Notes under the pieces: generated by a model
The model's database searches: none
The model's input: only the letters and a program-made list of their open reading frames with translations
What the model was told of the DNA's origin: nothing
Program-made: the position numbers and the translations under genes
Sequence record: MZ501058
Origin: Escherichia phage DaisyDussoix
Length of the DNA: 64,000 nucleotides
Direction: 5' to 3' (one strand)
In this document: positions 14,955 to 32,474 of the stretch, in pieces
Layout of the letters: the number at the start of each line of letters is the position of its first letter
Numbering within the stretch: position 1 is the first letter of the stretch

Positions 14955-15569
14955 ATGAGATTACCAGACCCATACACGAATCCAGAACTTTCAGGCTTAG
15001 GATTCGAAAGTGTTAACCTGATTGACAATGACCCAGTAATTCGTGATGAGTTACCAAATGGTAAAGTTAACGAAGTTAAGGTATCTGCTCAATACTGGGG
15101 TATAAATATTTCTTATCCAGAATTATTTCCAGATGAATATAGTGTTCTAGATGCTTTTATTCTAGAATACAAAAGGACTGGTGGTTATATAGATGTTATA
15201 TTACCCCAATACGAAGCTTTTAGAGTTAGAGGTAATACTAGTCTAGTAAGTATACCTGCTGGACAGAAGGGTTCTAATATAACTATGGATACAAAAGGGC
15301 TTCTTACAGGTACTCCAAAACCAGGGGATCTATTTAAGCTATCTAACCACCCAAAAGTATATAAAATAACATCATTTAACAAATCAGGTAATACATGGTC
15401 CATAAACTTATACCCTGATTTATTTATAACTACTACTGGAGCGGAGAAGCCAGTATTTAATGGAATACTATTTAGAACAAAACTCATGAATGGTGATGCT
15501 TTCGGATCTACATTAAATAATAACGGAACATATTCCGGCATCTCATTAAATTTACGGGAAAGTTTATGA
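14955..15569 (+). CDS. distal tail protein Dit (T5 pb9-like)
   Basis: 204 aa; position between tape measure and baseplate hub; strong SD. Confidence 0.65.
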   Translation: MRLPDPYTNPELSGLGFESVNLIDNDPVIRDELPNGKVNEVKVSAQYWGINISYPELFPDEYSVLDAFILEYKRTGGYIDVILPQYEAFRVRGNTSLVSIPAGQKGSNITMDTKGLLTGTPKPGDLFKLSNHPKVYKITSFNKSGNTWSINLYPDLFITTTGAEKPVFNGILFRTKLMNGDAFGSTLNNNGTYSGISLNLRESL

Positions 15570-18415
15570 AGAAAATACTAGATAGTGCTAGAAACTACTT
15601 AAAAAATAATAGCAGAATAAAAACTGCTAGTCTAATTTCTCTAGAATTACCTGGCTCTACTGGTACTAGTACTGCTTTTATTTACTTAACTGATTATTTT
15701 AGAGATGTACTATATAATGGTATTTTGTACCAGGCCGGTAAAGTTAAGTCTATTAGCACACATAAACAAAATAGAGATTTATCTATTGGCAGTCTATCTT
15801 TTACTATTACGGGTACAGCGCAGGATGAAGTACTGAAATTAGTGCAGAATGGTGTATCCTTTTTAGATAGACTAGTATCAATCCACCAAGCAATTATTAC
15901 AGAGGATGGTTCTATTTTACCTGTAGACCCAGACACAAATGGCCCTTTATTATACTTTAGAGGGAGAATTACTGGTGGGGGTATTAAGGACAATATTAGT
16001 ACTTCTGGGGTTGGAACCTCTACAATTACTTGGAATTGTTCTAACCAATTCTATGATTTTGATAGGGTTAACGGTAGATTTACTGATGATGCTTCTCATA
16101 GAGGGCTTGAGGTTGTAGCAGGACAATTAGTTCCATCTAATGGGGCTAAAAGACTTGAGTACCAAGAAGATTATGGGTTCTTTCATGCCAATAAAAGTAT
16201 CTCTATTCTAGCAAAATATCAGGTACAGGAAGAAAGATACAAGCTAAAGTCTAAGAAAAAACTATTTGGCCTATCTAGAAGCTATAGTCTTAAAAAGTAC
16301 TATGAGACTGTTACTAAAGAAGTAGATATAGATTTTAACCTTGCTGCTAAGTATATACCAGTAGTTTATGGTGTACAGAAAATACCGGGAATACCTATTT
16401 TTGCGGATACGGAATTACACAATCCTAATATAGTTTATGTAGTATATGCTTTTGCTGAAGGAGAGATAGACGGTTTTCTTGACTTTTCCTTTGGTGATAA
16501 TCCTATGATTTGTATGGACTCTAATGATAGCTCTGCTAGAACCTGCTTCGGTGTTAAAAAAGTAGCAGGAGACACCATGCAAAGAATAGCATCAGGAATA
16601 TCTTCTAGTAGTCCTTCTGTGCATGGTCAGGAATATAAGTATAATGATGGTAATGGTGATATAAGGATTTGGACTTATCATGGAAAAGCTGATCAAACGG
16701 CTTCTGAAGTATTAGTAAATATAGCGAAGGAACGTGGGTTCTATCTCCAAAATATGAACGGTAATGGGCCTGAGTACTGGGATGCTAGATATAAACTATT
16801 AGATACTGCATACGCGATAGTACGCTTTACTATTAATGAAAATAGAACCGAGATCCCAGAGGTTAGTGCTGAGATTCAGGGTAAGAAGATAAAAATCTAT
16901 CATTCTGATGGTAGAGTAACTGCTAATAGTACTAGTTTAAACGGTATTTGGCAAACACTTGACTACTTAACTTCAGATAGGTATGGTGCAAACATTACTA
17001 TTGATCAGTTTCCTCTCCAACAATTGGTACAAGAAGCTGCTATCTTAGATATTATAGATGAATCTTACCAAGTATCCTGGCAGCCATACTGGAGATATGT
17101 TGGGTGGACTGATCCATTAGCAGAAAATAGACAAATAGTACAAATGAATACTATTCTAGATACGTCTGAATCAGTATTTAAAAACGTGCAAGGTTTGCTA
17201 GAGTCCTACGGTGGGGCTATTAACAACTTATCTGGTCAATATAGGATTACTGTAGAAAAATATTCTAATACTCCATTAGAGATTAATTTTCTGGATACTT
17301 ATGGTGATTTAGAGCTATCAGATACTACTGGTAGAAATAAATTCAACTCAGTTCAAGCATCCATCGTAGACCCAGCTCTTAGCTGGAAAACTAACTCTAT
17401 TACCTTTTACAACTCCAAATATAAAGAACAAGATAAAAATTTAGACAAAAAATTACAGTTATCTTTTGCAAATATAACTAACTACTATACTGCTAGAAGT
17501 TTTGCGGATAGAGAACTTAAGAAATCCAGATACTCAAGAACACTTTCTTTCTCATTGCCATATCAATTCATTGGTATTGAGCCTAATGATGCTATTGCAT
17601 TTACATACGACCGTTATGGATGGGATAAGAAATACTTTTTAGTAGATGAAGTAGAAAACTCTAGAGAAGGAAAGATAAATGTTACTCTACAGGAGTACGG
17701 GGAGGATGTATTCATCAACTCTGAGCAGGTTGATAATAGCGGTAATGATATTCCTGATATTAGTAACAATGTCCTTCCTCCTAGAGACTTTAAGTATACC
17801 CCTACTCCTGGCGGTTTAGTAGGCTCTATAGGTAAAAATGGTGAGTTATCCTGGCTTCCGAGTCTAACCAATAATGTAGTTTATTACTCTATTGTGCACT
17901 CAGGTCATGCCGAACCTTACATAGTACAACAGTTAGAGACCAACCCTAACGAACGTATGATCCAAGAGATAATTGGAGAGCCCGCAGGTTTAGCAATATT
18001 TGAAATAAGGGCTGTGGATATAAATGGTAGAAGAAGCTCTCCAGTAACATTATCTATAGAACTTAACTCTGCTAAAAACCTAAGTGTAGTACCTAATTTT
18101 AGGGTAACTAATACGGCTTCTGGGGATGTAACTGAATTTGTAGGCCCAGATGTAAAACTAGCTTGGGATAGAATACCGGAAGAAGATATAATAGAAAGTA
18201 TATTCTATACTCTGGAAATCTATGACTCCCAGAATAGAATGCTAAGAAGTGTACGTATTGAAAATCAGTATACTTATGACTATTTATTAATGTATAATAA
18301 GGCAGATTTTGCTCTTCATAACAGTGATGCTCTAGGAATCAACAGAAAACTATATTTTCGTATTAGAGCAGAAGGAGATGATGGAGAACAGTCTGTGGAG
18401 TGGGCATCCATTTAA
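15566..18415 (+). CDS. baseplate hub / tail tip protein (T5 pb3-like)
   Basis: 949 aa; ATGA overlap with Dit gene; canonical Dit-hub order. Confidence 0.7.
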   Translation: MKKILDSARNYLKNNSRIKTASLISLELPGSTGTSTAFIYLTDYFRDVLYNGILYQAGKVKSISTHKQNRDLSIGSLSFTITGTAQDEVLKLVQNGVSFLDRLVSIHQAIITEDGSILPVDPDTNGPLLYFRGRITGGGIKDNISTSGVGTSTITWNCSNQFYDFDRVNGRFTDDASHRGLEVVAGQLVPSNGAKRLEYQEDYGFFHANKSISILAKYQVQEERYKLKSKKKLFGLSRSYSLKKYYETVTKEVDIDFNLAAKYIPVVYGVQKIPGIPIFADTELHNPNIVYVVYAFAEGEIDGFLDFSFGDNPMICMDSNDSSARTCFGVKKVAGDTMQRIASGISSSSPSVHGQEYKYNDGNGDIRIWTYHGKADQTASEVLVNIAKERGFYLQNMNGNGPEYWDARYKLLDTAYAIVRFTINENRTEIPEVSAEIQGKKIKIYHSDGRVTANSTSLNGIWQTLDYLTSDRYGANITIDQFPLQQLVQEAAILDIIDESYQVSWQPYWRYVGWTDPLAENRQIVQMNTILDTSESVFKNVQGLLESYGGAINNLSGQYRITVEKYSNTPLEINFLDTYGDLELSDTTGRNKFNSVQASIVDPALSWKTNSITFYNSKYKEQDKNLDKKLQLSFANITNYYTARSFADRELKKSRYSRTLSFSLPYQFIGIEPNDAIAFTYDRYGWDKKYFLVDEVENSREGKINVTLQEYGEDVFINSEQVDNSGNDIPDISNNVLPPRDFKYTPTPGGLVGSIGKNGELSWLPSLTNNVVYYSIVHSGHAEPYIVQQLETNPNERMIQEIIGEPAGLAIFEIRAVDINGRRSSPVTLSIELNSAKNLSVVPNFRVTNTASGDVTEFVGPDVKLAWDRIPEEDIIESIFYTLEIYDSQNRMLRSVRIENQYTYDYLLMYNKADFALHNSDALGINRKLYFRIRAEGDDGEQSVEWASI

Positions 18416-20472
18416 TGATTTCGAATAATGCACCAGCCAAAATGGTCTTAAATAGTATAATGACTGGATATACAATGGCATATGTCCAGCACTCTATATA
18501 TACTGACTATGACGTTATTGGTAGATCTTTTTGGTTAAAGATAGGAGAAAGTATAGATAGACGTGATTATACCGGTATAGATACTTTCTTCGTAATGATT
18601 AATAACCTGACCCCTTCAACCTCTTACGAGATTCAAGGGGCTTTCTACGACTCTATTATAGACTCTGAACTATTAGAGGCTAAAATTGGTATCAATCTAT
18701 CTAATGAAACCAACTTTAAGACAAAAGAGAAGCCCACAATTGTTGCAGCAAGATCTGAATCAGAACCTGTGGATGTTGGGGTAGGTGCACCGATAGTTGT
18801 CGTAGAAACAACTGGTGAAGCAAGCTATTGTACTATTGAATTAAAAAGTACAGCTACTGAAGACAGTCCTTGGACTAAGTATTACATTGGGGCTTTAGGT
18901 TCTACTATTAAATTTGGTGGAGTTCCTATCGGAGATTATAAGATCAGAATATCTGGTCAAGTTACGATGCCAGATGGTGTTACAGTTGACTCATCTGGTT
19001 ATTATGAATATCCTAGCGTTTTCACTGTAGCTTATAATTTTGTACCGCCTACTGCACCTACTAACATTGCCTTTAAAGCTGCACGAATCGCAGATGGTAA
19101 GGAACGATATGATGTTAGAATAGAGTGGGATTGGGAACGTGGTGCGGGTGCTAATGTTCGTGAGTTCTTGGTTACATATATAAATTCTGAAGAATACGCT
19201 AAGACTGGCTGGGCTAAAGCTCAAAAGATAAACGTTGGTGCTGCTAGAGCCGCAACGATTATATCGTTCCCATGGAAAGTTGAGCATACTTTTAAGGTAT
19301 CATCAATTGCCTGGGGACCAAATAAGCAAGATATAACAGAATCAGCTCCTGTAACGTTTATACTTAATGAAGATACTCCTCTAGACAACAGCTTTGTCAA
19401 TGAGACGGGTATTGATGTTAATTATGCCTTTATTAAAGGCAGCATGAAAGATGGAGAAATCTGGAGACAGACATTCTTAATCGACGCAGCTACTGGTGCT
19501 ATTAACATTGGTCTGCTAGATGAAGAAGGAAAAGCACCTATTTCTTTCGACCCTATAAACCGTGTTGTTAACGTTGATGGTAAAGTAATTACTAGAGATA
19601 TTAATGCTGCGAACTTTATCATGACTAATTTATCTGGTAAGGATAATCCAGCAATTTATACTCAAGGTAAATCTTGGGGGGATAATAACTCTGGTATTTG
19701 GATGGGTATGGATAATACCTCTGCCAAAGCTAAATTAGACATTGGTAACGCTACACAATGGATACGTTATGATGGTACTACTTTGCGTATCTCTAGTGGT
19801 GTAGTCATTGGAACACCAAATGGTGACGTAGATATTGGAACTGGATTACAAGGTAAACAGACAGTATTTGTTTATAAGTTAGCAACATCTCTACCTGCTA
19901 AACCACTAGAACAAGATTATCCGCCTCCTGGTTGGTCAAAAACTCCACCTAACCGTACAGATATGACACAAAATATCTATGCCACTACAGGTACGCTTGA
20001 TCCCGTTACTAACAAACTTCTTGAAGGTACTAGCTGGTCTGATGTAGTTCAGTGGAGCGGTACTGAAGGTACTATAGGACATGACGGACAACGTGGTCCT
20101 GGGATGTACTCCTTAGGTATTCCTGGTCTTGGAGGCTGGGATGATGGACAAGCTAATGCCTTCTTCCAGAATAACTTTGGTAGTCCTCCTGTTAGATATG
20201 ATGTATTAACCGAATTTAATAGTAATGCTCCACAATCAGCATTTACCAGACAATGGAATGGATCTGGGTGGGTTAACCCTGCAATGGTTCTTCACGGGAA
20301 CATGATTGTTAATGGAACAGTGACGGCAGATAAAATTGTAGCAGGAAATGCTTTCTTGTCTCAAATTGGTGTTAATATCATTTATGATAGAAATGCTGCG
20401 TTATCCGGGAATCCTGAGGCATACTACAAGATGAAGATAGACCTAAATAGTGGGTATATCCATATAAGGTAA
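18400..20472 (+). CDS. central straight-fibre protein (T5 pb4-like)
   Basis: 690 aa; follows hub gene with short overlap; synteny. Confidence 0.6.
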   Translation: MGIHLMISNNAPAKMVLNSIMTGYTMAYVQHSIYTDYDVIGRSFWLKIGESIDRRDYTGIDTFFVMINNLTPSTSYEIQGAFYDSIIDSELLEAKIGINLSNETNFKTKEKPTIVAARSESEPVDVGVGAPIVVVETTGEASYCTIELKSTATEDSPWTKYYIGALGSTIKFGGVPIGDYKIRISGQVTMPDGVTVDSSGYYEYPSVFTVAYNFVPPTAPTNIAFKAARIADGKERYDVRIEWDWERGAGANVREFLVTYINSEEYAKTGWAKAQKINVGAARAATIISFPWKVEHTFKVSSIAWGPNKQDITESAPVTFILNEDTPLDNSFVNETGIDVNYAFIKGSMKDGEIWRQTFLIDAATGAINIGLLDEEGKAPISFDPINRVVNVDGKVITRDINAANFIMTNLSGKDNPAIYTQGKSWGDNNSGIWMGMDNTSAKAKLDIGNATQWIRYDGTTLRISSGVVIGTPNGDVDIGTGLQGKQTVFVYKLATSLPAKPLEQDYPPPGWSKTPPNRTDMTQNIYATTGTLDPVTNKLLEGTSWSDVVQWSGTEGTIGHDGQRGPGMYSLGIPGLGGWDDGQANAFFQNNFGSPPVRYDVLTEFNSNAPQSAFTRQWNGSGWVNPAMVLHGNMIVNGTVTADKIVAGNAFLSQIGVNIIYDRNAALSGNPEAYYKMKIDLNSGYIHIR

Positions 20473-20478
20473 TAAATA

Positions 20479-20901
20479 ATGAGTACAGAAAATAGAGTAA
20501 TTGATATTGTTATTGATGAGAAAGTGCCTTATGGTCTTATCATGCAGTTTATGGATGTTGATGATAGTGTATACCCTCCTTCTGAAATACCTGTTAATTT
20601 AACAGGTTATTCACTTCGTGGAACGATTAAAGCAAGTCTTGACGAGGATGCGGAAACTTTAGCTACTTTTAAAACTCGTATAATCGATGCGGCTCAAGGA
20701 GCTGCTGCTATTAGCCTTAGTGTTGGAGATGTTAATAATATAGGTATTAAGGCATCCAAAGAGCGTGATAAATATAACCCAAGACAACGTTTCGCAGGTT
20801 ATTACGATATTCTAATGACTCGCGATGTTATTGGTTCAGAAGTCAGTTCTTTCCGTATTATGGAAGGAAAGGTTTACGTGAGTGACGGGGTAACTCAATA
20901 A
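20479..20901 (+). CDS. collar protein (T5 p132-like)
   Basis: 140 aa; between central fibre and L-shaped fibre genes; overlaps next start. Confidence 0.45.
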
Positions 20902-23900
20902 TGGCACTTAAAACTAAAATTATTGTACAGCAGATTCTGAACATAGATGACACTACAACTACTGCTAGTAAGTATCCTAAATATACAGTAGTTTTAGGAA
21001 ATTCTATTACTGCTGGTGAATTAACTGCTGCTTCTGCGGCAGCAGCAAAAGATTCTGAAATTGCTGCTAAAGATTCTGAGAATAAAGCAAAAGATTCAGA
21101 AAACATGGCTGGTATCTATGCTACTTCCTCTGAAACATCTGCAACCCAATCAGCGGCATCTGCGGCCGAAGCTAAAAAACAAGCTGGTTTATCTCAGAAG
21201 AGTGCTGAAGCATCAGCTACATCGGCGGAAGAGTCTAAAGGATTTAGAGATTCTGCTGAATTAGCTGCTCAAAATGCTGAAACTAGTCGTAGACTTGCAG
21301 AACAAGCTAAAACAGCTGCGCAACAAGCTCAAACAGCTGCAGAAGCTGCTAAGACTGGTGCTGAAACAGCTAAAGATGGAGCTGATGCTGCTGCTACCAC
21401 TGCTGGCGAACATGCTGCTGCTGCTAAACAATCAGAACTAAACGCTAAGATTTCTGAAACTAATGCTGCTGGTTCTGCTACTGAAGCTGGTGATAAAGCT
21501 ATCGATGCTACTACTGAGGCTAATCGCGCTAAAGCAGAAGCTGATCGTGCAACTCAGATTGTTGATAATAAACTTGATAAGGTAGATATTTCTGGTTTCA
21601 TCAAAGTTTATAAGACTAAAGCAGAAGCCGATGCTGATGTTGGAAATCGTGTACTAGGGGAGAAGATCCTAGTATGGAATCAAACTGATTCAAAATATGG
21701 TTGGTATAAAGTTGCTGGTACTGCTGAAGCTCCTGTTCTAGAGTTAGTAGAAATAGAGCAAAAGCTAGTTTCTATTAACAACGTTCACGCAGATGATGCA
21801 GGTAACGTACAGATCACACTTCCTGGTGGTAACCCGTCTCTGTGGCTAGGTGAAGTTACTTGGTTCCCTTATAACAAGGATTCAGGTGTTGGTTACCCTG
21901 GTGTTCTACCTGCTGATGGCCGTGAAGTTCTTCGTGTGGACTATCCAGATACTTGGGAGGCTATTGAGGCTGGCTTAATTCCTTCTGTATCAGAAGCTGA
22001 ATGGCAAGCTGGTGCGTCTCTTTACTTCTCTACTGGTGATGGCTCTACAACCTTCCGTCTACCAGATATGATGCAAGGACAGGCATTCCGTGCACCAACT
22101 AAAGGTGAAGAAGATGCTGGTGCTATCAAAGAACAAATCCCTTATATCACTACGGTGAATGGGATTGGTCCTGCTGACGATACTGGAGCTATTAAGCTAC
22201 CTTACGTGGCGATGGTTAACGGAGCTATTATACCAGATGAGAACGGGAACCTAGCACTAGGTAACGTTGTTACTAAGAATGTTTGGAATGGTACTGATGG
22301 AGAAGTTCTACTTCGCGGTGCTTTTGGTTTAGGTGGTGCTGGTATTGCGTTAAATGAACCAGATCTAGTATCCTTCTTTAAAGCTATGAGGGCCTTTGGT
22401 TCTGGATATTATCGCAATGACACTGGATTTGACGGCTTGCCTGCATATGCTGCAGGTTTCTATTCCAGAGTAGCAGATACTAACTCATTTATCTGTCCAG
22501 CGTATGGTAGTGCCTCAGTATTTGTAGCCGCAATCAATGATGGTGGTTTAGATGGTGAAAACCCTACTGTTCATACTAATATTCTTTATGGTACTGTTAA
22601 TAAGCCGGATTTAAATGGGGATACTCAAGGTGTCTTAAGTCTAGCTAAAGGCGGTACTGGAGCTACCACAGTTGGTGCCGCTAGGAAAGCTTTAGAAGTT
22701 GGTGGAGTTTTCTGTAATGATAGTCCCGCTGATGCTGCTTTCAATTCCCTCCAGAGCCCTGCTGGTATTCATGAGTTTAGAATAACTAATGATGGAACAT
22801 GGGGTGTCTGGAAGAAGGGTGAAGAAACGGTAGCTGCGTTGCCTATAGGCTCTGGAGGTACGGGAGCTACTGATAAAGTTGCTGCACGTGATAACTTTGG
22901 ATTGGGGTATCATAATACTCCTAGATTTACTGGGGTAGATCTATCTAACCCCGAAAGTATACCCTATAGTGGTATCCTTAACCTAAATAGGCTAAAGGAA
23001 TCTGATCAAAATGTTATTACTCAGGGTAGAATCTATCATGAGATGCAATCAGGCTTGGCTAAAATTACCCTTCATATTAACAATACTTTAAATGGTGCAA
23101 ACCGTTATATACAGTTTATAGAAAATGGTGATTTAACTGGGCTACAGAATGTACATGCAGTTAACTACCTTGCAAGTGGTTATGTTACAGCCCAGGGATG
23201 GATCAAAGGCGGGGAAAAAATCTATATACAGCAAACAGGTGGGGGCAACAGGGAAATTAGTATGGCTGTACCTACTCCTAATAATGACCCTGGTGCTGGT
23301 TCTTGGGTTAACTTACTACAGGGTAACTGGTATAACGGTTACTGGCAAGTAGGTGGTATCCGTGGTAGTGGACCGGACTTAGACTGCCTCCGTATTGGAG
23401 TTACTAATAGTGGTACAGATTGGAAAGAGTTTAACTTCTATAACTCTTTCGGTGGGCACATAACTGCTCAAAGAGGTTTTCGTGGTCAGTGTATCCAAGG
23501 ATCTTGGGGCTTAGAGTGGAATTACATGGGTGCCCCATTTCATGCAGAGTCTGTAATAAATAATGATGGTGGTTGGTCTCCATTTGTTTCTGGTGGTACT
23601 GTATCTACAGGAGGCTACTCACTACGTGTTGGGCTTGGATGTATTTCTAATGGTAACGCTGCATGGCCTGATGCTGCTCTTAAGTTAAATGGGGATGGCC
23701 AGTTCCACCGTTCATTCACCTTTAGAACAAATGGTAGCATATATACTTGGGGTAATGATCCTTGGGGAGGTAACTATGACATTGCTATGAACCCTTCTTC
23801 AGATAGAGATATCAAAAGAGATATTAATTATGATGATGGGTTAGCCTCCTATGAGAATATAAAGCAATTTAAACCTACCACATTTATCTATAAACTAGAT

Positions 23901-24224
23901 AAGTATAATCGTGTACGCCGTGGTGTTATTGCTCAAGATCTTTATAAAATTGACCCTGAGTACGTAAAACTGGTTCCTGGTTCTCCAATTATAGAAATCC
24001 CAGAACATCATTGCTGTAATGGTGAAGCTGAGAATGCAGAAGGTAAGATCATTGGTTATAATGATGATACCCTAGCCTTAGATATCAACCCAATTGCTAT
24101 TGATACAGCTTTAGCAGTTCGTTACTTATCTCTAAAGTTCGAAGAGTCCCAGGAAGAACTGAAGTCCGTTAAGGCAGAACTGGCAGAGTTAAAAGCTCTA
24201 GTAGCCACTCTGGTAAATAAGTAA
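20901..24224 (+). CDS. ltfA: L-shaped tail fibre protein A with C-terminal intramolecular chaperone (autoproteolytic) domain
   Basis: 1107 aa; Ala-rich N-terminal repeats, GGTGAT fibre repeats, C-terminal SDRDIKRDINYDDG...IAQDLYKIDPEYV chaperone-type module. Confidence 0.8.
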   Translation: MALKTKIIVQQILNIDDTTTTASKYPKYTVVLGNSITAGELTAASAAAAKDSEIAAKDSENKAKDSENMAGIYATSSETSATQSAASAAEAKKQAGLSQKSAEASATSAEESKGFRDSAELAAQNAETSRRLAEQAKTAAQQAQTAAEAAKTGAETAKDGADAAATTAGEHAAAAKQSELNAKISETNAAGSATEAGDKAIDATTEANRAKAEADRATQIVDNKLDKVDISGFIKVYKTKAEADADVGNRVLGEKILVWNQTDSKYGWYKVAGTAEAPVLELVEIEQKLVSINNVHADDAGNVQITLPGGNPSLWLGEVTWFPYNKDSGVGYPGVLPADGREVLRVDYPDTWEAIEAGLIPSVSEAEWQAGASLYFSTGDGSTTFRLPDMMQGQAFRAPTKGEEDAGAIKEQIPYITTVNGIGPADDTGAIKLPYVAMVNGAIIPDENGNLALGNVVTKNVWNGTDGEVLLRGAFGLGGAGIALNEPDLVSFFKAMRAFGSGYYRNDTGFDGLPAYAAGFYSRVADTNSFICPAYGSASVFVAAINDGGLDGENPTVHTNILYGTVNKPDLNGDTQGVLSLAKGGTGATTVGAARKALEVGGVFCNDSPADAAFNSLQSPAGIHEFRITNDGTWGVWKKGEETVAALPIGSGGTGATDKVAARDNFGLGYHNTPRFTGVDLSNPESIPYSGILNLNRLKESDQNVITQGRIYHEMQSGLAKITLHINNTLNGANRYIQFIENGDLTGLQNVHAVNYLASGYVTAQGWIKGGEKIYIQQTGGGNREISMAVPTPNNDPGAGSWVNLLQGNWYNGYWQVGGIRGSGPDLDCLRIGVTNSGTDWKEFNFYNSFGGHITAQRGFRGQCIQGSWGLEWNYMGAPFHAESVINNDGGWSPFVSGGTVSTGGYSLRVGLGCISNGNAAWPDAALKLNGDGQFHRSFTFRTNGSIYTWGNDPWGGNYDIAMNPSSDRDIKRDINYDDGLASYENIKQFKPTTFIYKLDKYNRVRRGVIAQDLYKIDPEYVKLVPGSPIIEIPEHHCCNGEAENAEGKIIGYNDDTLALDINPIAIDTALAVRYLSLKFEESQEELKSVKAELAELKALVATLVNK
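21048..21110 (+). repeat. three tandem 21-bp in-frame repeats in ltfA (KDSEIAA/KDSENKA/KDSENMA)
   Basis: AAAGATTCTGAAATTGCTGCT / AAAGATTCTGAGAATAAAGCA / AAAGATTCAGAAAACATGGCT read directly. Confidence 0.8.
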
Positions 24225-24266
24225 GAGTATAGGGGAGTAACCTCCCCTATTTACTAAGGAAATACT

Positions 24267-26510
24267 ATGTCACGTAATTTAATGCCTAAATCTGGCGCAA
24301 TGGCGCCTTACGTAGTAGTTAACAGAGACGCCGCAGTTGCCGGCGTTTTCTCTGTTGATGGAGAAGCTGGTGCTGTTGTACTAACTTCTAAATACCTACA
24401 AATTACAAAATATAACTTAGATCAGCAAGAACTTAATACGCGTTTAACTGGTATTGATAGCTCTATCAAAAGTAATACTAATGCTATTGGGAATATCAAT
24501 ACTGCTCTTAGTAGTATGAATACCACTATAGATAGTAAAGCTGCTAAAGGTGCTAATAACGATATTACAGAACTAAATGCACTTACTAAGGCTATTACTG
24601 TAGCTCAGGGTGGGACAGGTGCTACTTCTCCAGATGGAGCACGTTTAGCATTAGAATTAAACCATCTTACTAAGTCAGCAGATGTTTCATATATGTCATC
24701 CCCCGATAGTTCAAAGTTATTTTATGTTAATAACGATGGGACTTGGGGAGTTACTGCTAATGGTGGAGGAACTAACTATGCCTTACCTATTACTCAAGGT
24801 GGTACAGGTGCTATTAGTGCTGCTGAGGCACTAGTTAAGCTAATGGATGGTAAACCATTACCATTAGCTGCAGACGGGCAAGCTCCTTATGATGCTGTGA
24901 CGGTAAGACAATTAGCTAATATTTCTGGTGGCGGCAACGCTAGCATGAGTGGGGTTATGAATAACTTCATTGGTGCTGTAGAATGGTTTAACGGTAACCG
25001 TACTAAACTGCCAGCCGGCTATATACCAGCAGATGGTCAGTTAGTTAGCCGTACTGATGCTAAAACAGCAGATCTATGGTCTGCGGTATCTAGTGGTCTA
25101 TTTTACTCTGTTTCCGACGCTTTATGGATTAATAGTGGGGATCCTGTTAGACCCTGCGCTTGGAGAGCTTCCTACTCTACTGGTGATGGTTCTACTACTT
25201 TCCGAGTTCCAGATCTTAACGGTACTCAGTTAAATAGTATTAAGCATTTATTTTTATCTGGTAGTTCAGGTGCTACTAATGAACCTTCGGCTAATCAGGT
25301 GTGGAATCAGGTTGCTCCCAATATTACTGGTACTTTCTACACTCATGGTAGTAACGCAGATGCTGCAGATGCCATGGGGGCTTTTTATTTAAATGCTCAA
25401 GATACAGGTGGTTCACTTACTGTAGGAGGTCCAGATAAGGGAGACCACTTAGGATTTTCGGCCTCTAGAAGTAGCAAGACATATGGTCGTGGTGTGGCTT
25501 ACCAACCAGACCCTGGTGGTACCAGCCCTATTGGTGATCTATACCCTAACCATGCAGCCGGTATTTGGATTATCCGTGCTAACGGTTCTTTTAACGCTGC
25601 TGGTTCACAGTATCATGTTATTAACGGAGATTCTACACGCCCTGCTGATGGAACTAATACTTATGGGGGCTTTGCATATAGCGACTACAGAGTAGGGGAA
25701 GTAGTTAATCACTCAGCTTTAATAGTAAGTGCCAAAAGATTTGGTAATCCTTATAGTGTTGCTGTTCTACAAGCGCATAATATGGAGAATGGGGATCTTG
25801 CTAACTTAGAAGTACAATCTAATGGTGTTGTTAACTTACCTACTTCGATTAATAATAAATCCTGGATAAAAGCTTCGGGGGCCAATGGCCTACATTTAGA
25901 GGCTACTACTACTACTACGGATCTACATACTATGCCTGGTGGGGGTTGTGGTGTATCTCCGGCAGATAGAAATGCTATCGAGTTGAATAATGCCCCAGGT
26001 GCTGTAGGTTCTGGTGGTTATGTTAACTGGCTGCAAGGATGGTGGTATGACGATAGGTTCCAATTTGGGACTGTTCGTAGTGGTTCTGTTGTATTGGCTG
26101 CTGTAGCCTTAACTATATATTCTAATACATTTGGGCTAAAACAGTGGTTCTTTAGAGCTAGTGATGGTAGGATTGCTTCCACTGCAGGTACTATTGCTAT
26201 TGAAGGTTCGGATATCAAACTTAAGGAGAATATAGTTAGAGCATCCGAAGGGGCCTTAGATAGAATAACTAAAATCACTCCTAGAGAGTTTGACTGGAAA
26301 GCTGGGGGTAGGCATGATAGAGGATATATTGCTCAGGAATTACGTGATGTAGATCCTACCTATGTATATTCATCAACCGTTGGGGAAGGAGAAGAGGTAT
26401 TAAATGTTAGTACATCTGCTCTGATTTCTGACTTAATAGCTGCTGTTACAGCTCTTAAACAAGAGTTAGATTCTGCCAAATTAGAAATTAAAAAGCTGAA
26501 AGCTAAATAA
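24267..26510 (+). CDS. ltfB: L-shaped tail fibre protein B with C-terminal intramolecular chaperone domain
   Basis: 747 aa; shares STGDGSTTFR.PD, GGTGAT and NDGTWGV motifs with ltfA; C-terminal SDIKLKENI...IAQELRDVDPTYV module. Confidence 0.75.
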   Translation: MSRNLMPKSGAMAPYVVVNRDAAVAGVFSVDGEAGAVVLTSKYLQITKYNLDQQELNTRLTGIDSSIKSNTNAIGNINTALSSMNTTIDSKAAKGANNDITELNALTKAITVAQGGTGATSPDGARLALELNHLTKSADVSYMSSPDSSKLFYVNNDGTWGVTANGGGTNYALPITQGGTGAISAAEALVKLMDGKPLPLAADGQAPYDAVTVRQLANISGGGNASMSGVMNNFIGAVEWFNGNRTKLPAGYIPADGQLVSRTDAKTADLWSAVSSGLFYSVSDALWINSGDPVRPCAWRASYSTGDGSTTFRVPDLNGTQLNSIKHLFLSGSSGATNEPSANQVWNQVAPNITGTFYTHGSNADAADAMGAFYLNAQDTGGSLTVGGPDKGDHLGFSASRSSKTYGRGVAYQPDPGGTSPIGDLYPNHAAGIWIIRANGSFNAAGSQYHVINGDSTRPADGTNTYGGFAYSDYRVGEVVNHSALIVSAKRFGNPYSVAVLQAHNMENGDLANLEVQSNGVVNLPTSINNKSWIKASGANGLHLEATTTTTDLHTMPGGGCGVSPADRNAIELNNAPGAVGSGGYVNWLQGWWYDDRFQFGTVRSGSVVLAAVALTIYSNTFGLKQWFFRASDGRIASTAGTIAIEGSDIKLKENIVRASEGALDRITKITPREFDWKAGGRHDRGYIAQELRDVDPTYVYSSTVGEGEEVLNVSTSALISDLIAAVTALKQELDSAKLEIKKLKAK

Positions 26511-26548
26511 AATAAAACCCCCGGTGGATTGTCCACCGGGGGTTTTTT
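26511..26548. terminator. bidirectional rho-independent terminator at convergent late/early junction
   Basis: 11-bp GC-rich stem CCCCCGGTGGA / TCCACCGGGGG flanked by an A run on one side and T6 on the other. Confidence 0.85.
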
Positions 26549-26551
26549 CTA

Positions 26552-26824
26552 TTATTCTTTACTGCCCGCGATAACACCTAAATTATATACGGCAAGCATA
26601 GCCCTAAGGGTAGGATCTTGAGACTCAGAACATAGGTTAATAAAACCTTCTTCATCCCACTGCTCTACATTGCCAAACATATCCACTTTTAATACTACCT
26701 TATCAAGTGTAGGTGGTGCTACAATCACATCATAGAAATTCGGGTGTTGATTAACATCAATCTCTATTTGAGTAGGGTCAACAAAATTACTTACTTCCTG
26801 AGCTTCCAAATCCACCTTCTCCAC
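26552..26824 (-). CDS. hypothetical protein
   Basis: 90 aa; GTG start with GAGGAG SD 6 nt upstream; overlaps 3' end of dut by 38 nt. Confidence 0.45.
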   Translation of the reverse strand: MEKVDLEAQEVSNFVDPTQIEIDVNQHPNFYDVIVAPPTLDKVVLKVDMFGNVEQWDEEGFINLCSESQDPTLRAMLAVYNLGVIAGSKE

Positions 26825-28590: not shown

Positions 28591-30429
28591 TTATTCTAAG
28601 TAGGAAAATCCTTCTGCATCTTTTTTAACTGTAATCTTATGGGCTAATGGATGCGTATGCCCATGAGAAACAATGATAGAATTTAGACTTTCTTCCTCAT
28701 TTAATAATTCAACAAGAGTGTCAAGTCCTTTCGTATCAATAAAGCTAATTACTTCATCAAGGAATAGAAGATTAATATTAACTTTACTAATAGATGTTAA
28801 CAGCATCCGAATAGCTAACAGGGTTGCTAGATTAATTCTACTTTGCTGACCAGTAGAGCAGTTCTCCATACTGGTACGATTTCCATCATTGAAGATTACT
28901 ACTTGTAACTTCGTTTCATCAAGTTCAAATCCAAGTGCGAATTTACCTCCAGTCATAATAGAAAGGTATTTATTAATTAATTCTTCGAATACTTTCACAC
29001 TATGCTCTAGTTTATATCCCACCAGATTTTTCAAAGCAGCAATTAGAATATCAAGATCAGCTACAGCTTCGGCTACTCCATCAAGTTTGGAAGTAATCTC
29101 AGACATTTCTGCTTCAGCTTTCTCAATCTGTTCTAGTTTCGCTTTATATTTTGCGTTGGCTAATTCGACATTTGCATTATGCTCTTTGGCAATTGCAACC
29201 TTAGAGCGGCCATCAGCGATTTCCTGTTCTAATTGTCGGATTTGCACCTGTAGGATTTGCACATTGAGTTCTTCAAAAGAAGCATCACTCATTGAATTTT
29301 TGAACTCGTCTCTAGCTACCACCGCTTTATCCAAAGCATCCTTTGCTCTAGTATACGCAACGTACTCAAGTTGTTCTTTCTTCAACTGTTCTAGCTTAGC
29401 TTCAAGAGATTGCTTCTCTTTGAACAGAGGGTCATATTCTACTCTAGCCATATCCATTGCTTTTTGAGCAGCAGTTGTATCCAGGTGAGTACCGCAAGTA
29501 GGGCATTCAGTATTTGAAGCCTCTTGCTTGAACTTCTGATAACGTTTCTTAACTTCGCTCGCACGTGAGGTCACAATCGTTAGGTCACGCGTAACACTCG
29601 AGATCTCTTCACTTTGGTCGGTGGGCGCGGGCAAATTTTTGAAAGGTTCGAAAGATTGTTCGGCAACTTGTACAGCTTTGTCCAAATTACGCAACTTAGT
29701 AATATTAGCCTCTTGAGACTTGGCTAATGCCGCCTTAATTTTCGATTCAGTAAGTTCTTGTGCTAATGGCTCTTCATCAAACTCCGGCACCTCTACAGGT
29801 TCCTGCAAAGTTCCTAGATTATTTTTTCCATTAAGGATTTTCGTAATTACAGCCATCTGGCCCTGCAAATTATTTAAGGTATTTGCTATTTCTTTACGGT
29901 CAGCCTTAATAGTTTCTGACATTTCTTTGTATTGCTCTTGATTGAACAAGTTAACAAGAAAAGCCTTACGTGTTGCATCTGTTGCTTTTAGGAAGTCTAG
30001 ATTAGAACCCACTGATTGATAAATCAGTTTGGTGAATGTTTGAAAGTCACCACCCATAATTTCTTCAATCATCTTATATGTTTGGGTTGCCGTATGCCCA
30101 CTAATATCTTCCCCATTCTTAATCAACGTTACTTTAGCAGTTGATTTAACTACTTTATGCAGCTCATACTCATCATCATCTTTCGAGAAATAAGCGTGCA
30201 TATCATATTCTTTCTTAGGGGCATTCCAAGAGAACAATGCATCCTTCTTGATACCTCGAGAGTTCTTGTTATAAAACAATTCCTCGATAACCGTAGCGAT
30301 GGTGGATTTCCCTAGCCCATTGCCACCAATTAGTTGAGTAACTGGATTCTTATCGAAATGAATTACGATGTCCTTACCGTAAGACATAACGTTACTAAAT
30401 TTTAGTGTCTTAATTGTAATCTTTGACAT
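28591..30429 (-). CDS. SbcC/Rad50-like recombination ATPase (T5 D13-like)
   Basis: Start set to ATG 30429 (MSKITIK); Walker A GGNGLGKST, coiled coil with CPTCG zinc hook, ABC signature STGQQSR, Walker B LLFLDE. Confidence 0.85.
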   Translation of the reverse strand: MSKITIKTLKFSNVMSYGKDIVIHFDKNPVTQLIGGNGLGKSTIATVIEELFYNKNSRGIKKDALFSWNAPKKEYDMHAYFSKDDDEYELHKVVKSTAKVTLIKNGEDISGHTATQTYKMIEEIMGGDFQTFTKLIYQSVGSNLDFLKATDATRKAFLVNLFNQEQYKEMSETIKADRKEIANTLNNLQGQMAVITKILNGKNNLGTLQEPVEVPEFDEEPLAQELTESKIKAALAKSQEANITKLRNLDKAVQVAEQSFEPFKNLPAPTDQSEEISSVTRDLTIVTSRASEVKKRYQKFKQEASNTECPTCGTHLDTTAAQKAMDMARVEYDPLFKEKQSLEAKLEQLKKEQLEYVAYTRAKDALDKAVVARDEFKNSMSDASFEELNVQILQVQIRQLEQEIADGRSKVAIAKEHNANVELANAKYKAKLEQIEKAEAEMSEITSKLDGVAEAVADLDILIAALKNLVGYKLEHSVKVFEELINKYLSIMTGGKFALGFELDETKLQVVIFNDGNRTSMENCSTGQQSRINLATLLAIRMLLTSISKVNINLLFLDEVISFIDTKGLDTLVELLNEEESLNSIIVSHGHTHPLAHKITVKKDAEGFSYLE

Positions 30430-31387
30430 ATTTCGCAGCTCTAGCCAAGATTCTATCAATGTCGCCTTGAGATAGCTTCTCGACTTCACGGAAGTAAAGT
30501 TCAAGTTCGCCCAACATATCAAGATCAACAAGATTTAACTTAGCATCTTTAGTAACTCGATGGTTAATCTTCTTATCTAATAAATCAGAGTCTTTAATAG
30601 ACTTTAATTGAACAACATCACCAGTAACTTCGTAGACTACACGATCATAATCACTAGGTTCCATCTCTTCACCAGCTCTGATTGTTTTACGAATCAGTTG
30701 TGGTAAATCACCTAGTTCAATCCATTCTACTTTTAATGTGTCGGTATCAATGATAAAGCAACCATTTGTACCTTTTGTGCGTTCTCTATGGAACGATGTA
30801 GTTAATGGAGAGCCTGGGTAGAGGAGTCTAGTAGATCCGATAGTCTGGCTATTAGTATAAGAATGTAAATCGCCAGCAATTACAGTATCATAACAGTTGT
30901 ACTTAGTTAGATCGATTTCTGGTTTTACGTGCGGAGGGATTTCACCACGAACATGCGTGAAACATAGTTTTGATTCAGCAGGTTTCCACTTGGGTTTATG
31001 AATCTCATCATATGGGACAATATCAAATTCAGTGGAACGATATGGTTTGGTAATTACTTCCCATTTCCCACTAGTTACTTTATTAATAACTCCCGCATAA
31101 TGGTACAGACATGAAATGGTTTTAGTTAACATTTCATGATTTCCAGTAAAGATTTTGCCTGGATGGTCAAGTCTTGACATGAACTGTTCAAGCAGTTCTA
31201 TTTCTTCTGACGACGGGTCGGCAACATCAAGTATATCACCACCAGCAATATGAAGATCACAGTTATGATTATGGAATATATCATTTAACCGTTCTCCTAG
31301 CATCAGGAAGCGACGCTTCTGCCATTCCTTTGGAACTTTATCTTGTCCTAGTTTGATATGATGATCAGCACTAAATAATATTCTCAT
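30410..31387 (-). CDS. SbcD/Mre11-like nuclease (T5 D12-like)
   Basis: 325 aa; calcineurin-like phosphoesterase motifs DHH, GGDILD, GNHE; overlaps D13 start. Confidence 0.85.
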   Translation of the reverse strand: MRILFSADHHIKLGQDKVPKEWQKRRFLMLGERLNDIFHNHNCDLHIAGGDILDVADPSSEEIELLEQFMSRLDHPGKIFTGNHEMLTKTISCLYHYAGVINKVTSGKWEVITKPYRSTEFDIVPYDEIHKPKWKPAESKLCFTHVRGEIPPHVKPEIDLTKYNCYDTVIAGDLHSYTNSQTIGSTRLLYPGSPLTTSFHRERTKGTNGCFIIDTDTLKVEWIELGDLPQLIRKTIRAGEEMEPSDYDRVVYEVTGDVVQLKSIKDSDLLDKKINHRVTKDAKLNLVDLDMLGELELYFREVEKLSQGDIDRILARAAKYVKDYN

Positions 31388-31423: not shown

Positions 31424-32197
31424 TTAATCATCCAGATCGCTTGCAGCTTCGTGGTCAATACCTTTCTGGGAACCAGCATTGCTGTTACCAGATTTGGCAT
31501 CATCATCTTTATTCTCACGACCTTCCATGAAGGCTTGAATTGCTTCTTTCTGCTCTTCATAGGTAGGAACCGGATAGGTTTGTTCCAGAGAAGGAACTTT
31601 CTCAAACTTAATGATGTCGCCATCTTCGTCACACATAGCTTCACCAATCAGATCTACATCCGCAGCATATTGCTTAGATTCTGCACTGTTAGGATCTTGC
31701 AGCTTAATCTGGAACTGCATAGCAGCAATCTGCTGTACATCATACTCAGTATCGAAACCTTTGCCTTTTTTCTCGATAGAAATATCAATATCAAACGGAG
31801 TTGCCAGATTCAACTGCTTCATGATAGACTGGATGCCTTTCAGAATAGTAGCTTTGACTTCCATTACTTTCAGTTTGTTATCAGAACGGTCGATAACAAA
31901 AGCGATATAGTTTTTCTTCGGTTTCAGCGGAACGCGATTACCATCTTTATCCAGCTCTTTCTCAAAGAAGCCCATCTCATGAACCGGATCAGCTTTACCA
32001 CGAACAAAACTCTCTTTGTCGCGGTTAAAACGGAGACATTCGAAAGGAGCTACGCTACCCTCTTTATTAGTCAGCCAATAGACATAACGTGGAAGAACAC
32101 CAGAAACGATACGAACACGAGTGATACCGTTGTTGAACTTCAGGAATTCGATTTTATCGTTAGAACCGCCAGTAGTTTCGCCCCAAGACTTAGCCAT
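31424..32197 (-). CDS. hypothetical protein with strongly acidic C-terminal tail (possible DNA-binding/SSB-like)
   Basis: 257 aa ending ...EAASDLDD; placed between helicase and SbcCD-like genes. Confidence 0.35.
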   Translation of the reverse strand: MAKSWGETTGGSNDKIEFLKFNNGITRVRIVSGVLPRYVYWLTNKEGSVAPFECLRFNRDKESFVRGKADPVHEMGFFEKELDKDGNRVPLKPKKNYIAFVIDRSDNKLKVMEVKATILKGIQSIMKQLNLATPFDIDISIEKKGKGFDTEYDVQQIAAMQFQIKLQDPNSAESKQYAADVDLIGEAMCDEDGDIIKFEKVPSLEQTYPVPTYEEQKEAIQAFMEGRENKDDDAKSGNSNAGSQKGIDHEAASDLDD

Positions 32198-32474
32198 ATT
32201 TTATTTCCTCTTTAAAGATTAATTTCGATTTGTTAATTGCGATTAGTGGGTTAGTGTCGATTACTAAACGTGGTATCCATACTGGAACATATTGTATGTC
32301 CAAACTAGGATCGTTTGTAAACTTGTATTCGGCATAATTTCGTAGACTTAAAATTCCTAGATATTCTGCCAGTTGTCTATTAGACAATTTATTTGGATTA
32401 TCAACTATTGTTGATTCATTCAAAATGAATGAGGAACCGACCAATAATTGGTGAGCATCAGGCTCTGTAAGCAT
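32190..32474 (-). CDS. hypothetical protein
   Basis: 94-aa ORF; no strong SD seen. Confidence 0.3.
   Translation of the reverse strand: MLTEPDAHQLLVGSSFILNESTIVDNPNKLSNRQLAEYLGILSLRNYAEYKFTNDPSLDIQYVPVWIPRLVIDTNPLIAINKSKLIFKEEIKYG

Follow-up and report, generated by a model that had tools for sequence, protein, structure and literature searches.

The locus at the end of the late operon of Escherichia phage DaisyDussoix (sequence record MZ501058) very probably encodes a two-component, branched L-shaped tail fiber of the type described for phage DT57C. Within the 64,000-nucleotide stretch analyzed here (the window), two adjoining tail fiber open reading frames of this T5-like coliphage occupy positions 20901 to 24224 (plus strand, 1,107 aa; ltfA, the proximal, tail-attached L-shaped tail fiber protein) and 24267 to 26510 (plus strand, 747 aa; ltfB, the second or branch fiber protein). 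The original prediction of two tandem fiber genes, each with a C-terminal intramolecular chaperone, agrees with these coordinates and with the presence of Pfam family PF13884 in both products. LtfA matched the tail fiber family PHROG 5481 over its full length (E = 0), and the profile search also identified the second open reading frame as a fiber protein (PHROG 6921, tail fiber, E = 1.7e-135). The two large fiber genes lie directly 3' of ltfC, where they close the late operon and converge on dut, and the order pb3, pb4, ltfC, ltfA, ltfB, terminator, and convergent dut is identical in DT57C, NBEco001, and chee24. In T5, as the original prediction stated, there is a single fiber gene of about 1,400 codons (ltf, 1,396 aa), whose product carries both the attachment region and the receptor-binding tip, whereas DaisyDussoix has two genes.

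Judged by sequence, this is the LtfC-LtfA-LtfB system already described for DT57C and DT571/2, and the arrangement is not new. It was published in 2016 on the basis of genetics (Golomidova et al. 2016, PMC4728585), and the DT57C system was examined by cryo-electron microscopy (cryo-EM) in 2023 (Ayala et al. 2023, PMC10713586; PDB 8hqz). Hundreds of deposited T5-like genomes carry the two-gene arrangement, and in many of them it is annotated. Every module that defines the DT57C-type locus clearly has a homologue here, which favors the earlier suggestion of a branched fiber with possible dual specificity. The DaisyDussoix locus is a fresh combination of known gene variants, real but ordinary, and its value for discovery is small, given that branched fibers of this kind have been characterized both genetically and structurally and are widespread. 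Its practical value lies in annotation: two interchangeable adhesin modules would determine the host range on smooth (O-antigen-bearing) strains, with exchange points after LtfA residue ∼434 and LtfB residue ∼50, and expression of LtfA and LtfB would need the C-terminal chaperones on both. A search of the window with DT57C pb5 (tblastn) returned only a noise match (E = 7), as expected from the proposal that the pb5 receptor-binding gene lies beyond the terminase end; in DT57C the pb5 gene adjoins terS, and our window opens at the terS start codon.

The attachment end of the fiber closely resembles that of DT57C. The collar protein that would anchor LtfA at the tail tip is encoded by ltfC (20479 to 20901, plus strand, 140 aa; Pfam PF23926 LtfC, E = 2.7e-14), whose stop codon shares 1 nucleotide with the start of ltfA. 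DaisyDussoix LtfC is 93% identical to its DT57C counterpart and differs from chee24 LtfC at one residue, with no residues unique to the window. LtfA matched the DT57C LtfA structure (PDB 8hqz) with an E value of 8e-241, and its first 433 residues, which run from the tail attachment through the coiled coil to a Kuravirus-type domain, are 86% identical to DT57C LtfA. Residues 1 to 36 (20901 to 21008, plus strand) are near-identical to DT57C LtfA residues 1 to 39, which according to the DT57C cryo-EM work (PMC10713586) are N-terminal strands inserted into the ring of LtfC. 

An Ala/Ser/Glu/Lys-rich stretch at residues ∼37 to 230 (21009 to 21590, plus strand), recognized by repeat search and T5 homology, is predicted to form a trimeric coiled coil built on 21-nt (heptad) repeats, with tandem families at 21042 to 21104 and 21296 to 21358. 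Together, the attachment region and coiled coil (residues 1 to 221) share 46.5% identity with residues 1 to 215 of T5 Ltf, also known as pb1 (PDB 4UW7/4UW8), and a T5/DT57C-type attachment region accompanies LtfC here, with the caveat that 9 conserved neck residues are missing.

These residues are absent through two in-frame deletions at the junction between the collar and the coiled coil: 3 residues (9 nt) are missing after nucleotide 20999 and 6 residues (18 nt) after nucleotide 21026, leaving the neck 9 residues shorter than that of DT57C. All 15 homologues compared, T5 included, possess the missing residues, as does every matching phage record. Searches of IMG/VR, JGI metagenomes, and GTDB genomes recovered the undeleted junction but not the deleted one; one IMG/VR match to the deletion junction (L006) was rejected as a chance 20-mer within an unrelated gene. 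Since short direct repeats flank both deletions, we read them as slippage.

Could the shortened neck block seating of LtfA in the LtfC collar, so that LtfA and LtfB are lost from or unstable on virions, as happens with fiberless mutants after laboratory passage, and the locus is an inactive copy of a known system? The otherwise invariant nature of the 9 residues among the homologues compared and the slippage-type repeats are consistent with such a defect. In DT57C, moreover, a one-residue deletion in the coiled coil abolished fiber function, and fiberless mutants came to make up ∼30% of clones on K-12 (PMC4728585). However, both deletions preserve the reading frame, the other 1,098 residues of LtfA are intact and differ from chee24 by only 28 substitutions, and ltfB and ltfC are intact as well. 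The deletions also fall right where the helix begins (T40 in DT57C LtfA; PMC10713586), and a change of register may be absorbed there. An inactive locus thus seems rather unlikely to us. Tentative, and also rather unlikely, is the idea that the unique deletions may alter how the branched fiber as a whole is anchored, or prevent its anchoring, as a natural or passage-selected neck variant, and that both receptor-binding bodies may also bind O antigens so far assigned to no T5-like fiber. If this were true, DaisyDussoix would demonstrate either that a neck of otherwise invariant length can be shortened or that the two adhesins go missing as a pair. Should DaisyDussoix adsorb poorly to smooth strains, the neck deletion is worth keeping in mind.

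If the fiber is anchored and branched, as we favor, how would LtfB be held on it? LtfA residues 219 to 434 (21555 to 22202, plus strand) form a domain like Kuravirus gp14/gp12, homologous to the long tail fiber proximal protein gp12 of SU10 (PDB 7z47 chain D, E = 7.8e-43). A docking role for this domain was proposed for DT57C/DT571-2 (PMC4728585), and we regard it as the putative platform for LtfB. The segment STGDGSTTFRLPD sits within it (aa 377; nt 22029 to 22067). Identity to DT57C is 84 to 100% per 50-aa block along the domain and drops to 48% in the block spanning its end (aa 401 to 450). On the LtfB side, residues 1 to 47 (24267 to 24407, plus strand) match by tblastn an N-terminal docking module common to Kuravirus distal long tail fiber proteins. 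A search with residues 1 to 62 retrieved 234 phage records, including the ∼76-kb Kuraviruses EP335, SU7, and YF01 ("distal long tail fiber"), with 70 to 75% identity over residues 1 to 47. The first 50 residues are 90% identical to DT57C LtfB, and the conserved module extends for ∼50 to 60 residues. BLASTP of LtfB against T5 Ltf gave no match. LtfB has an N terminus of ∼45 residues of the phiEco32 gp15 type and lacks a T5-type attachment sequence, as also reported for LtfB of DT57C/DT571-2 (PMC4728585). The N terminus alone retrieved nothing meaningful from PDB sequences, among which the Kuravirus distal fiber is absent.

The same Kuravirus likeness raises a different geometry, in which LtfB makes up the distal half of one fiber with an elbow, joined end-on to LtfA, and the C-terminal region of LtfA is structural. 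The SU10 long fiber consists of a proximal gp12 trimer and a distal gp13 trimer with one elbow and no branch described (PMC9509320); LtfA residues 219 to 434 resemble gp12 and the LtfB N terminus resembles the distal proteins, and green fluorescent protein (GFP)-tagged EP335 gp12 bound none of the strains tested. However, a further ∼530 residues of LtfA follow the gp12-like domain, and LtfA carries a cleavable-type chaperone of its own, a hallmark of a free C-terminal tip. In DT57C/DT571-2, host specificity switches when the C-terminal segment of LtfA is exchanged (PMC4728585), and the LtfA distal module serves as a lateral fiber tip in unrelated ∼50-kb phages. We consider the end-on arrangement highly unlikely.

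A branched fiber is also what the published mutants point to. In DT57C/DT571-2, an ltfA amber mutation eliminated growth on both O-antigen hosts, and an ltfB opal mutation led to the loss of one host (PMC4728585). By cryo-EM, LtfA alone occupies the LtfC collar of DT57C, and weak LtfB density was read as folded back (PMC10713586); branching was deduced there from the genetic data together with the lack of LtfB in the collar. In AKFV33 virions, mass spectrometry identified four gel bands, the LtfA homologue among them and LtfB not; with only four bands identified, this is uninformative on LtfB. The chee24 paper contributes host range tables only with regard to receptors.

Beyond the docking domain, residues 435 to 966 of LtfA (22203 to 23798, plus strand) make up the distal shaft and receptor-binding region, a variable module that contains the GGTGAT and NDGTWGV motifs and was delimited by block identity, homologues, and the AlphaFold2 (AF2) model (pLDDT of 71). 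After residue ∼450 it is unrelated to DT57C LtfA (16 to 28% per block). Its homologues are found in T5-like phages and among the lateral tail fibers of ∼50-kb siphophages, and all of its BFVD matches are phage fibers. In LtfB, residues ∼222 to 647 (24930 to 26207, plus strand) contain a collar-like domain (Pfam PF07484 Collar, 24.8 bits versus a cutoff of 24), in which STGDGSTTFRVPD is located (aa 304; nt 25176 to 25214), and a predicted receptor-binding body; pLDDT was mostly 75 to 90 across residues 230 to 530 and 570 to 647. LtfB has 534 homologues; over residues 1 to 528 it is 43% identical to DT57C LtfB, falling to 20 to 46% after residue 150. The distal modules of DaisyDussoix and DT57C are thus different alleles.

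Foldseek searches with monomer AF2 models gave no significant PDB fold match for the LtfA distal region or for LtfB outside its chaperone. PDB matches to both receptor-binding bodies other than the intramolecular chaperone (IMC) had rmsd values of about 15 to 65 Å and offered no credible fold, which is weak negative evidence because these are monomer models of trimeric fibers. NCBIfam gave no match for LtfA or LtfB, and a "pyocin knob" label on one homologue is for that reason without confirmation.

Both proteins end in an intramolecular chaperone/autoprotease domain of the Peptidase_S74 family (PF13884): residues 967 to 1107 of LtfA (23799 to 24221, plus strand; E = 7.9e-10, 39.3 bits), whose removal once folding is complete is predicted, and residues 648 to 747 of LtfB (26208 to 26507, plus strand; E = 3.2e-11, 43.8 bits), against a gathering cutoff of 22. 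The Ser/Lys dyads Ser967/Lys972 of LtfA and Ser648/Lys653 of LtfB align with T5 Ser1264/Lys1269, which is catalytic according to the S1264A structure (PMC4690869). Among 61 LtfA homologues the serine is invariant and the lysine at least 90% conserved; both LtfB residues are invariant among 70 homologues. Structure prediction of both C termini, suggested as a check on the original prediction, yielded a body of mixed alpha/beta structure that leads into a long C-terminal helix in monomer AF2 models of moderate confidence, and chaperone folds (IMC/ICA) were the sole significant PDB matches: the MyRF ICA (7dc3, probability 1.00) and the K1F endosialidase IMC (3gw6, probability 0.97). When the chaperone regions alone were used to search PDB sequences, neither T5 4UW8 nor K1F 3GW6 was recovered, and the dyads were therefore checked by direct alignment to T5 Ltf and by the fold search. 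Autoproteolytic release at Ser967 and Ser648 is predicted by analogy; it would convert unprocessed proteins of 117.5 kDa (LtfA) and 78.3 kDa (LtfB) into mature forms of residues 1 to 966 (101.6 kDa) for LtfA and 1 to 647 (67.3 kDa) for LtfB. The domains share the Pfam family, the Ser-x4-Lys dyad, and the predicted fold with those of K1F endosialidase (3GW6), GA-1 gp12 (3GUD), and MyRF (7DC3), but here they cap fiber tips that lack a PDB fold match rather than a triple-beta-helix tailspike.

Did the two genes arise from one another? The fiber and chaperone motifs singled out in the original prediction are present in both proteins: GGTGAT (aa 584 and 652), NDGTWGV (630), SSDRDIK (966), IAQDL (1010), and DPEYV (1018) in LtfA, and GGTGAT (115), GGTGAI (178), NDGTWGV (156), SDIK (648), IAQEL (688), and DPTYV (696) in LtfB. 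BLASTP between the two proteins found two motif-bearing segments (E = 7e-13 and 5e-12) and two C-terminal segments (E = 2e-5 and 3e-5), a similarity beyond chance. These four segments (29 to 41% identity) and one 46-nt DNA repeat (83% identity) are what a recent tandem duplication followed by divergence could claim. The similarity is, however, confined to short local alignments over motifs common to many fibers, the N termini are unrelated (Kuravirus type in LtfB, T5 type in LtfA), the distal modules have distinct sets of relatives, and for both genes much nearer relatives exist elsewhere. The literature likewise concludes that recombination rather than duplication was at work (PMC10644984). 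The duplicated-gene option of the original prediction thus did not hold up, and we regard it as extremely unlikely.

The nearest loci are the ltf loci of NBEco001, ECOP18, and the chee24 group in deposited genomes. Against NBEco001, the whole 5.6-kb locus has 91.9% nucleotide identity, with 89.7% amino acid identity for LtfA and 96.8% for LtfB. LtfA is 96 to 100% identical to chee24 LtfA in each 50-aa block, whereas chee24 LtfB resembles that of DaisyDussoix in the docking N terminus only and is unrelated after residue ∼50. DaisyDussoix joins a chee24-type LtfA, coiled coil included, to an NBEco001-type LtfB, and the distal, receptor-binding portions of the two proteins have been exchanged as modules. 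Such swaps keep the docking module and change all distal parts, as expected for a design of adaptor plus variable tip.

Gene order, module-by-module homology, conserved catalytic residues, and the chaperone fold are shown by the present analysis. For the working of the fiber we draw on studies of DT57C/DT571-2, T5, and the Kuraviruses, from which we infer physical docking, cleavage, and receptor type. An LtfA trimer would thread its first ∼36 residues into the dodecameric LtfC collar and exit as a coiled coil. An LtfB trimer would dock through its conserved ∼47-residue N terminus onto LtfA residues ∼219 to 434, and since LtfA runs on for ∼530 residues past this site to its own receptor-binding tip, each fiber would bear two different adhesin tips. 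The C-terminal region of each protein would fold with the help of its own chaperone, which after trimerization would cleave itself off at Ser967 or Ser648 and unmask the binding tip. The most likely ligands of the two tips are two different O-antigen polysaccharides, bound reversibly, which would allow passage through the O-antigen layer before pb5 binds its outer membrane protein receptor.

Gene order and junctions are those of DT57C/DT571-2, where both fibers also end in S74 chaperone domains. T5 pb1 shares the attachment region and coiled coil, another segment of ∼100 aa at 36% identity, a C-terminal chaperone of this kind, with its Ser/Lys dyad, and the role of reversible O-antigen binding, but T5 is without a second fiber gene, and its distal parts are unrelated in sequence to those of DaisyDussoix. 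The two-protein long tail fibers of Kuraviruses (phiEco32 gp14/gp15, SU10 gp12/gp13, and EP335 gp12/gp13) share the modules described above with LtfA and LtfB, and EP335 gp13, which has a chaperone at its C terminus, binds O157/O26 cells. Kuraviruses are, however, podophages whose fiber sits on an adaptor ring rather than on an LtfC collar, and their proximal protein is shorter (786 aa), with no S74 domain reported for it.

At the DNA level, no tRNA genes or Rfam families were found within the window. Internal promoters were dropped, as the scan gave 20 sites versus 18.2 expected from shuffles. Long direct DNA repeats between ltfA and ltfB, which cause fusions in DT57C, were likewise dropped; DaisyDussoix is without them, the 46-nt repeat being the only one. 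The 42-nt spacer between ltfA and ltfB contains a GC-rich hairpin (24229 to 24250, plus strand; 9-bp stem, −15.6 kcal/mol), followed on its 3' side by the ltfB ribosome-binding site AAGGA. The hairpin is the same in NBEco001 and chee24, and DT57C has another GC hairpin at that place. Downstream of ltfB, a bidirectional intrinsic terminator (26514 to 26546) is predicted to close both the late (fiber) operon and the convergent dut operon. Its 15-bp stem includes 9 GC pairs (−27.9 kcal/mol), with T-runs on both strands. The terminator is conserved in NBEco001 and chee24, and T5 has an "efficient bidirectional terminator" annotated at this very place.

The two adjacent fibre ORFs of the original prediction, ltfA (20901-24224, + strand, 1107 aa) and ltfB (24267-26510, + strand, 747 aa), were recovered with exactly the coordinates and sizes proposed, and all of the quoted motifs were located in both products. 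LtfA, the proximal tail-attached fibre protein, carries GGTGAT at aa 584 and 652, STGDGSTTFRLPD at 377 and NDGTWGV at 630, and LtfB, the second (branch) fibre protein, carries GGTGAT at 115, GGTGAI at 178, STGDGSTTFRVPD at 304 and NDGTWGV at 156. The S-D...K / IAQ(D/E)L / DP.YV signature is found at both C termini. Nothing beyond four local alignments (E = 7e-13, 5e-12, 2e-5 and 3e-5) reached significance in a direct BLASTP of LtfA against LtfB, so the motif sharing is real without extending to full-length similarity. The system itself is already known; our analysis confirms the earlier observation and supports its interpretation, except for the term "duplicated."

On the basis of its sequence, the locus is the LtfC-LtfA-LtfB arrangement of the DT57C type, originally studied in DT57C and DT571/2 (PMC4728585). 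The collar protein LtfC is 93% identical to that of DT57C. LtfA is 86% identical to DT57C LtfA over aa 1-433 and unrelated beyond, and LtfB is ∼90% identical over its first 50 residues and only 20-46% identical past aa 150. Sequence searches of the PDB matched LtfA to the cryo-EM chain of DT57C LtfA (8hqz, E = 8e-241) and its aa 219-434 to the long-tail-fibre proximal protein gp12 of the Kuravirus SU10 (7z47, E = 7.8e-43). The equivalent region, which resembles phiEco32 gp14, was proposed as the LtfB docking site by Golomidova et al. (PMC4728585). The first ∼47 residues of LtfB are 70-75% identical to the N terminus encoded by the second fibre gene in many Kuraviruses of ∼76 kb, including EP335, SU7 and YF01 ("distal long tail fiber"), and the same likeness has been reported between DT57C LtfB and phiEco32 gp15 (PMC4728585). 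Taken together, LtfC, LtfA, LtfB, the two PDB matches and the Kuravirus matches supply all of the sequence features that define the DT57C-type system.

What fibre would such a locus build? In DT57C, nine LtfA N termini thread into a dodecameric LtfC ring, every LtfA trimer exits the ring as a coiled coil from T40, and LtfB is absent from the collar in cryo-EM (PMC10713586). Of the two O-antigen-bearing hosts, HS1/2 and HS3-104, neither supported growth of an ltfA amber mutant; with an ltfB opal mutation, growth was lost on HS3-104 and poor on HS1/2, and the C-terminal segment of LtfA sets the other host specificity (PMC4728585). From homology to these genetic and structural data, a two-tip fibre is expected in the window, in which one LtfA-anchored stalk would bear two different adhesin tips, each maturing with the help of a self-cleaving chaperone of its own. 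Both tips would bind O antigen reversibly before the receptor-binding protein pb5 engages its outer-membrane receptor. The proposal of a branched fibre with possible dual receptor specificity draws support from the same homology to DT57C and DT571/2; the paper on chee24 gives host-range tables only. The chief alternative is a fibre of purely serial build, "proximal plus distal" in the wording of the SU10 paper (PMC9509320). We disfavour it because LtfA runs on for ∼530 residues and has a chaperone-dependent tip of its own.

The prediction that a chaperone module ends both proteins was borne out by four agreeing lines of evidence. Pfam PF13884 (Peptidase_S74) matches both C termini above threshold. 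The catalytic Ser1264 and Lys1269 of T5 Ltf, established from the uncleaved S1264A structure (PMC4690869), align with Ser967 and Lys972 of LtfA and with Ser648 and Lys653 of LtfB. The LtfB pair is invariant across 70 homologues; for the LtfA distal part, 61 homologues show no change at Ser967 and at least 90% conservation of Lys972. AlphaFold2 models built from these 70- and 61-homologue alignments (mean pLDDT of 67.9 for LtfB and 71.2 for LtfA) had intramolecular chaperone folds as their only significant PDB matches, namely the MyRF ICA domain (7dc3, probability 1.00) and the K1F endosialidase chaperone (3gw6, probability 0.97). The predicted mature products are LtfA 1-966 (101.6 kDa) and LtfB 1-647 (67.3 kDa). 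The receptor-binding bodies N-terminal to the chaperone domains gave no credible PDB fold match in these models; in a search of predicted viral structures, only phage fibre and S74 proteins matched the LtfA distal model.

The "duplicated" arrangement did not hold: LtfA and LtfB lack full-length similarity, and their modules have different relatives. LtfA is 96-100% identical to chee24 LtfA per 50-aa block, and the chee24 LtfB is shared in the first ∼50 residues only. Conversely, LtfB is 92-100% identical to that of NBEco001, whose LtfA differs chiefly in the coiled coil (52-78% identity over aa 50-200). Because LtfA is chee24-like and LtfB is NBEco001-like, we regard the locus as one in which known modules are newly combined, with the junctions at conserved adaptor segments. 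Gene duplication as its origin was rejected in favour of mosaicism, since the closest relatives of the two proteins lie in different phages; a family-wide analysis in the BF23 paper likewise attributes ltfA and ltfB to recombination, not duplication (PMC10644984). In ∼50-kb siphophages, for example egaa, FritzSarasin and Klebsiella phage Samwise, the lateral tail fibres contain homologues of the LtfA distal module (22203-23798, aa 435-966; ∼78% coverage, 45-50% identity), which indicates fibre-tip exchange between phage families. In DT57C, long ltfA/ltfB repeats give rise to fusion mutants, whereas the window has just one DNA repeat between the genes, of 46 nt at 83% identity. Within the LtfA coiled coil, tandem 21-nt (7-codon) repeats occur at 21042-21104 and 21296-21358 (e.g., AAKDSEI/AAKDSEN/KAKDSEN). 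Within LtfA, divergence from NBEco001 is greatest in this repeat-bearing coiled coil (52-78% identity), a pattern that suggests variation of stalk sequence or length mediated by the repeats.

All 15 homologues compared have 9 neck residues that the LtfA of the window lacks; the closest are 1116 aa long, and T5 and DT57C have these residues too. Two in-frame deletions account for this on the + strand of ltfA, one of 9 nt at 20999/21000 ("SIS/SSI," inside a TCTATT repeat) and one of 18 nt at 21026/21027 ("TAAVEA/AAVEAS," with GCTGCT on both sides). Both fall within codons 33-43, each at a short direct repeat, and they are the sole indels relative to chee24 LtfA over 1116 positions. The site is the exact transition from the LtfC-bound N-terminal strands to the start of the coiled coil; LtfC has no window-specific change. 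None of the 103 phage records matching the stretch carries the deletions (full-coverage matches span 106 nt, that is, 79 + 27), and searches of IMG/VR, JGI metagenomes and GTDB genomes did not detect the deleted junctions; as a control, four IMG/VR contigs were seen to contain the undeleted one. Loss of a single coiled-coil residue inactivated the fibre of DT57C, and mutants without fibres build up on K-12 (PMC4728585). Because of these precedents, the neck deletions could mark a variant altered in attachment that arose by slippage or was selected during passage. They could equally be neutral, since both are in frame and all else is intact, and they may also reflect an assembly artefact at the short repeats.

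The window belongs to a T5-like phage (Demerecviridae, Tequintavirus-like) with a replication block ∼96% identical to that of coliphages VAH1, MM-1 and phiAPCEc03. Its plus-strand late operon runs terS (1-483), terL, portal, major capsid protein, tail tube, tape measure (11162-14845), Dit, pb3 (15566-18415), pb4, LtfC (20479-20901), ltfA and ltfB. T5 has one ltf gene of 1396 aa, as stated in the original prediction (∼1400 aa), compared to the two fibre genes here. The placement of pb5 outside the window, past the terminase end, was also right: tblastn with DT57C pb5 gave a noise match only (E = 7), and pb5 directly adjoins terS in the DT57C record, while the window begins at the terS ATG. The 42-nt ltfA-ltfB spacer contains a GC-rich 9-bp hairpin (24229-24250) just 5' of the ltfB ribosome-binding site. 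NBEco001 and chee24 share this hairpin, and DT57C has another GC hairpin in its place. By attenuating transcription or stabilising the mRNA, the hairpin may set the LtfA:LtfB ratio. A strong bidirectional terminator (26514-26546, perfect 15-bp stem) lies 4 nt past the ltfB stop codon, between the fibre genes and the convergent dut-D15-D14-D13 block, and the T5 annotation has a terminator of this kind at the corresponding position. Adjoining it, a minus-strand ORF of 90 aa (26552-26824) overlaps the end of dut and corresponds in position to T5.132 and chee24 gp091, each annotated "hypothetical protein."

Two mechanically called starts give ORFs longer than the annotated homologues, GTG 18400 of pb4 (18400-20472) and TTG 30531 of the D13/SbcC homologue (28591-30531). 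NBEco001, DT57C and chee24 all have a pb4 of 2058 nt, which points to a start at 18415; T5 and DT57C have a D13 of 1839 nt. By these comparisons, the true starts of both genes are probably internal ATGs. Finally, a 254-aa plus-strand ORF (31451-32215) overlaps almost exactly a 257-aa minus-strand ORF (31424-32197) that sits, by synteny only, at the D11 position of T5 and DT57C; the plus-strand ORF is probably a spurious antisense ORF.
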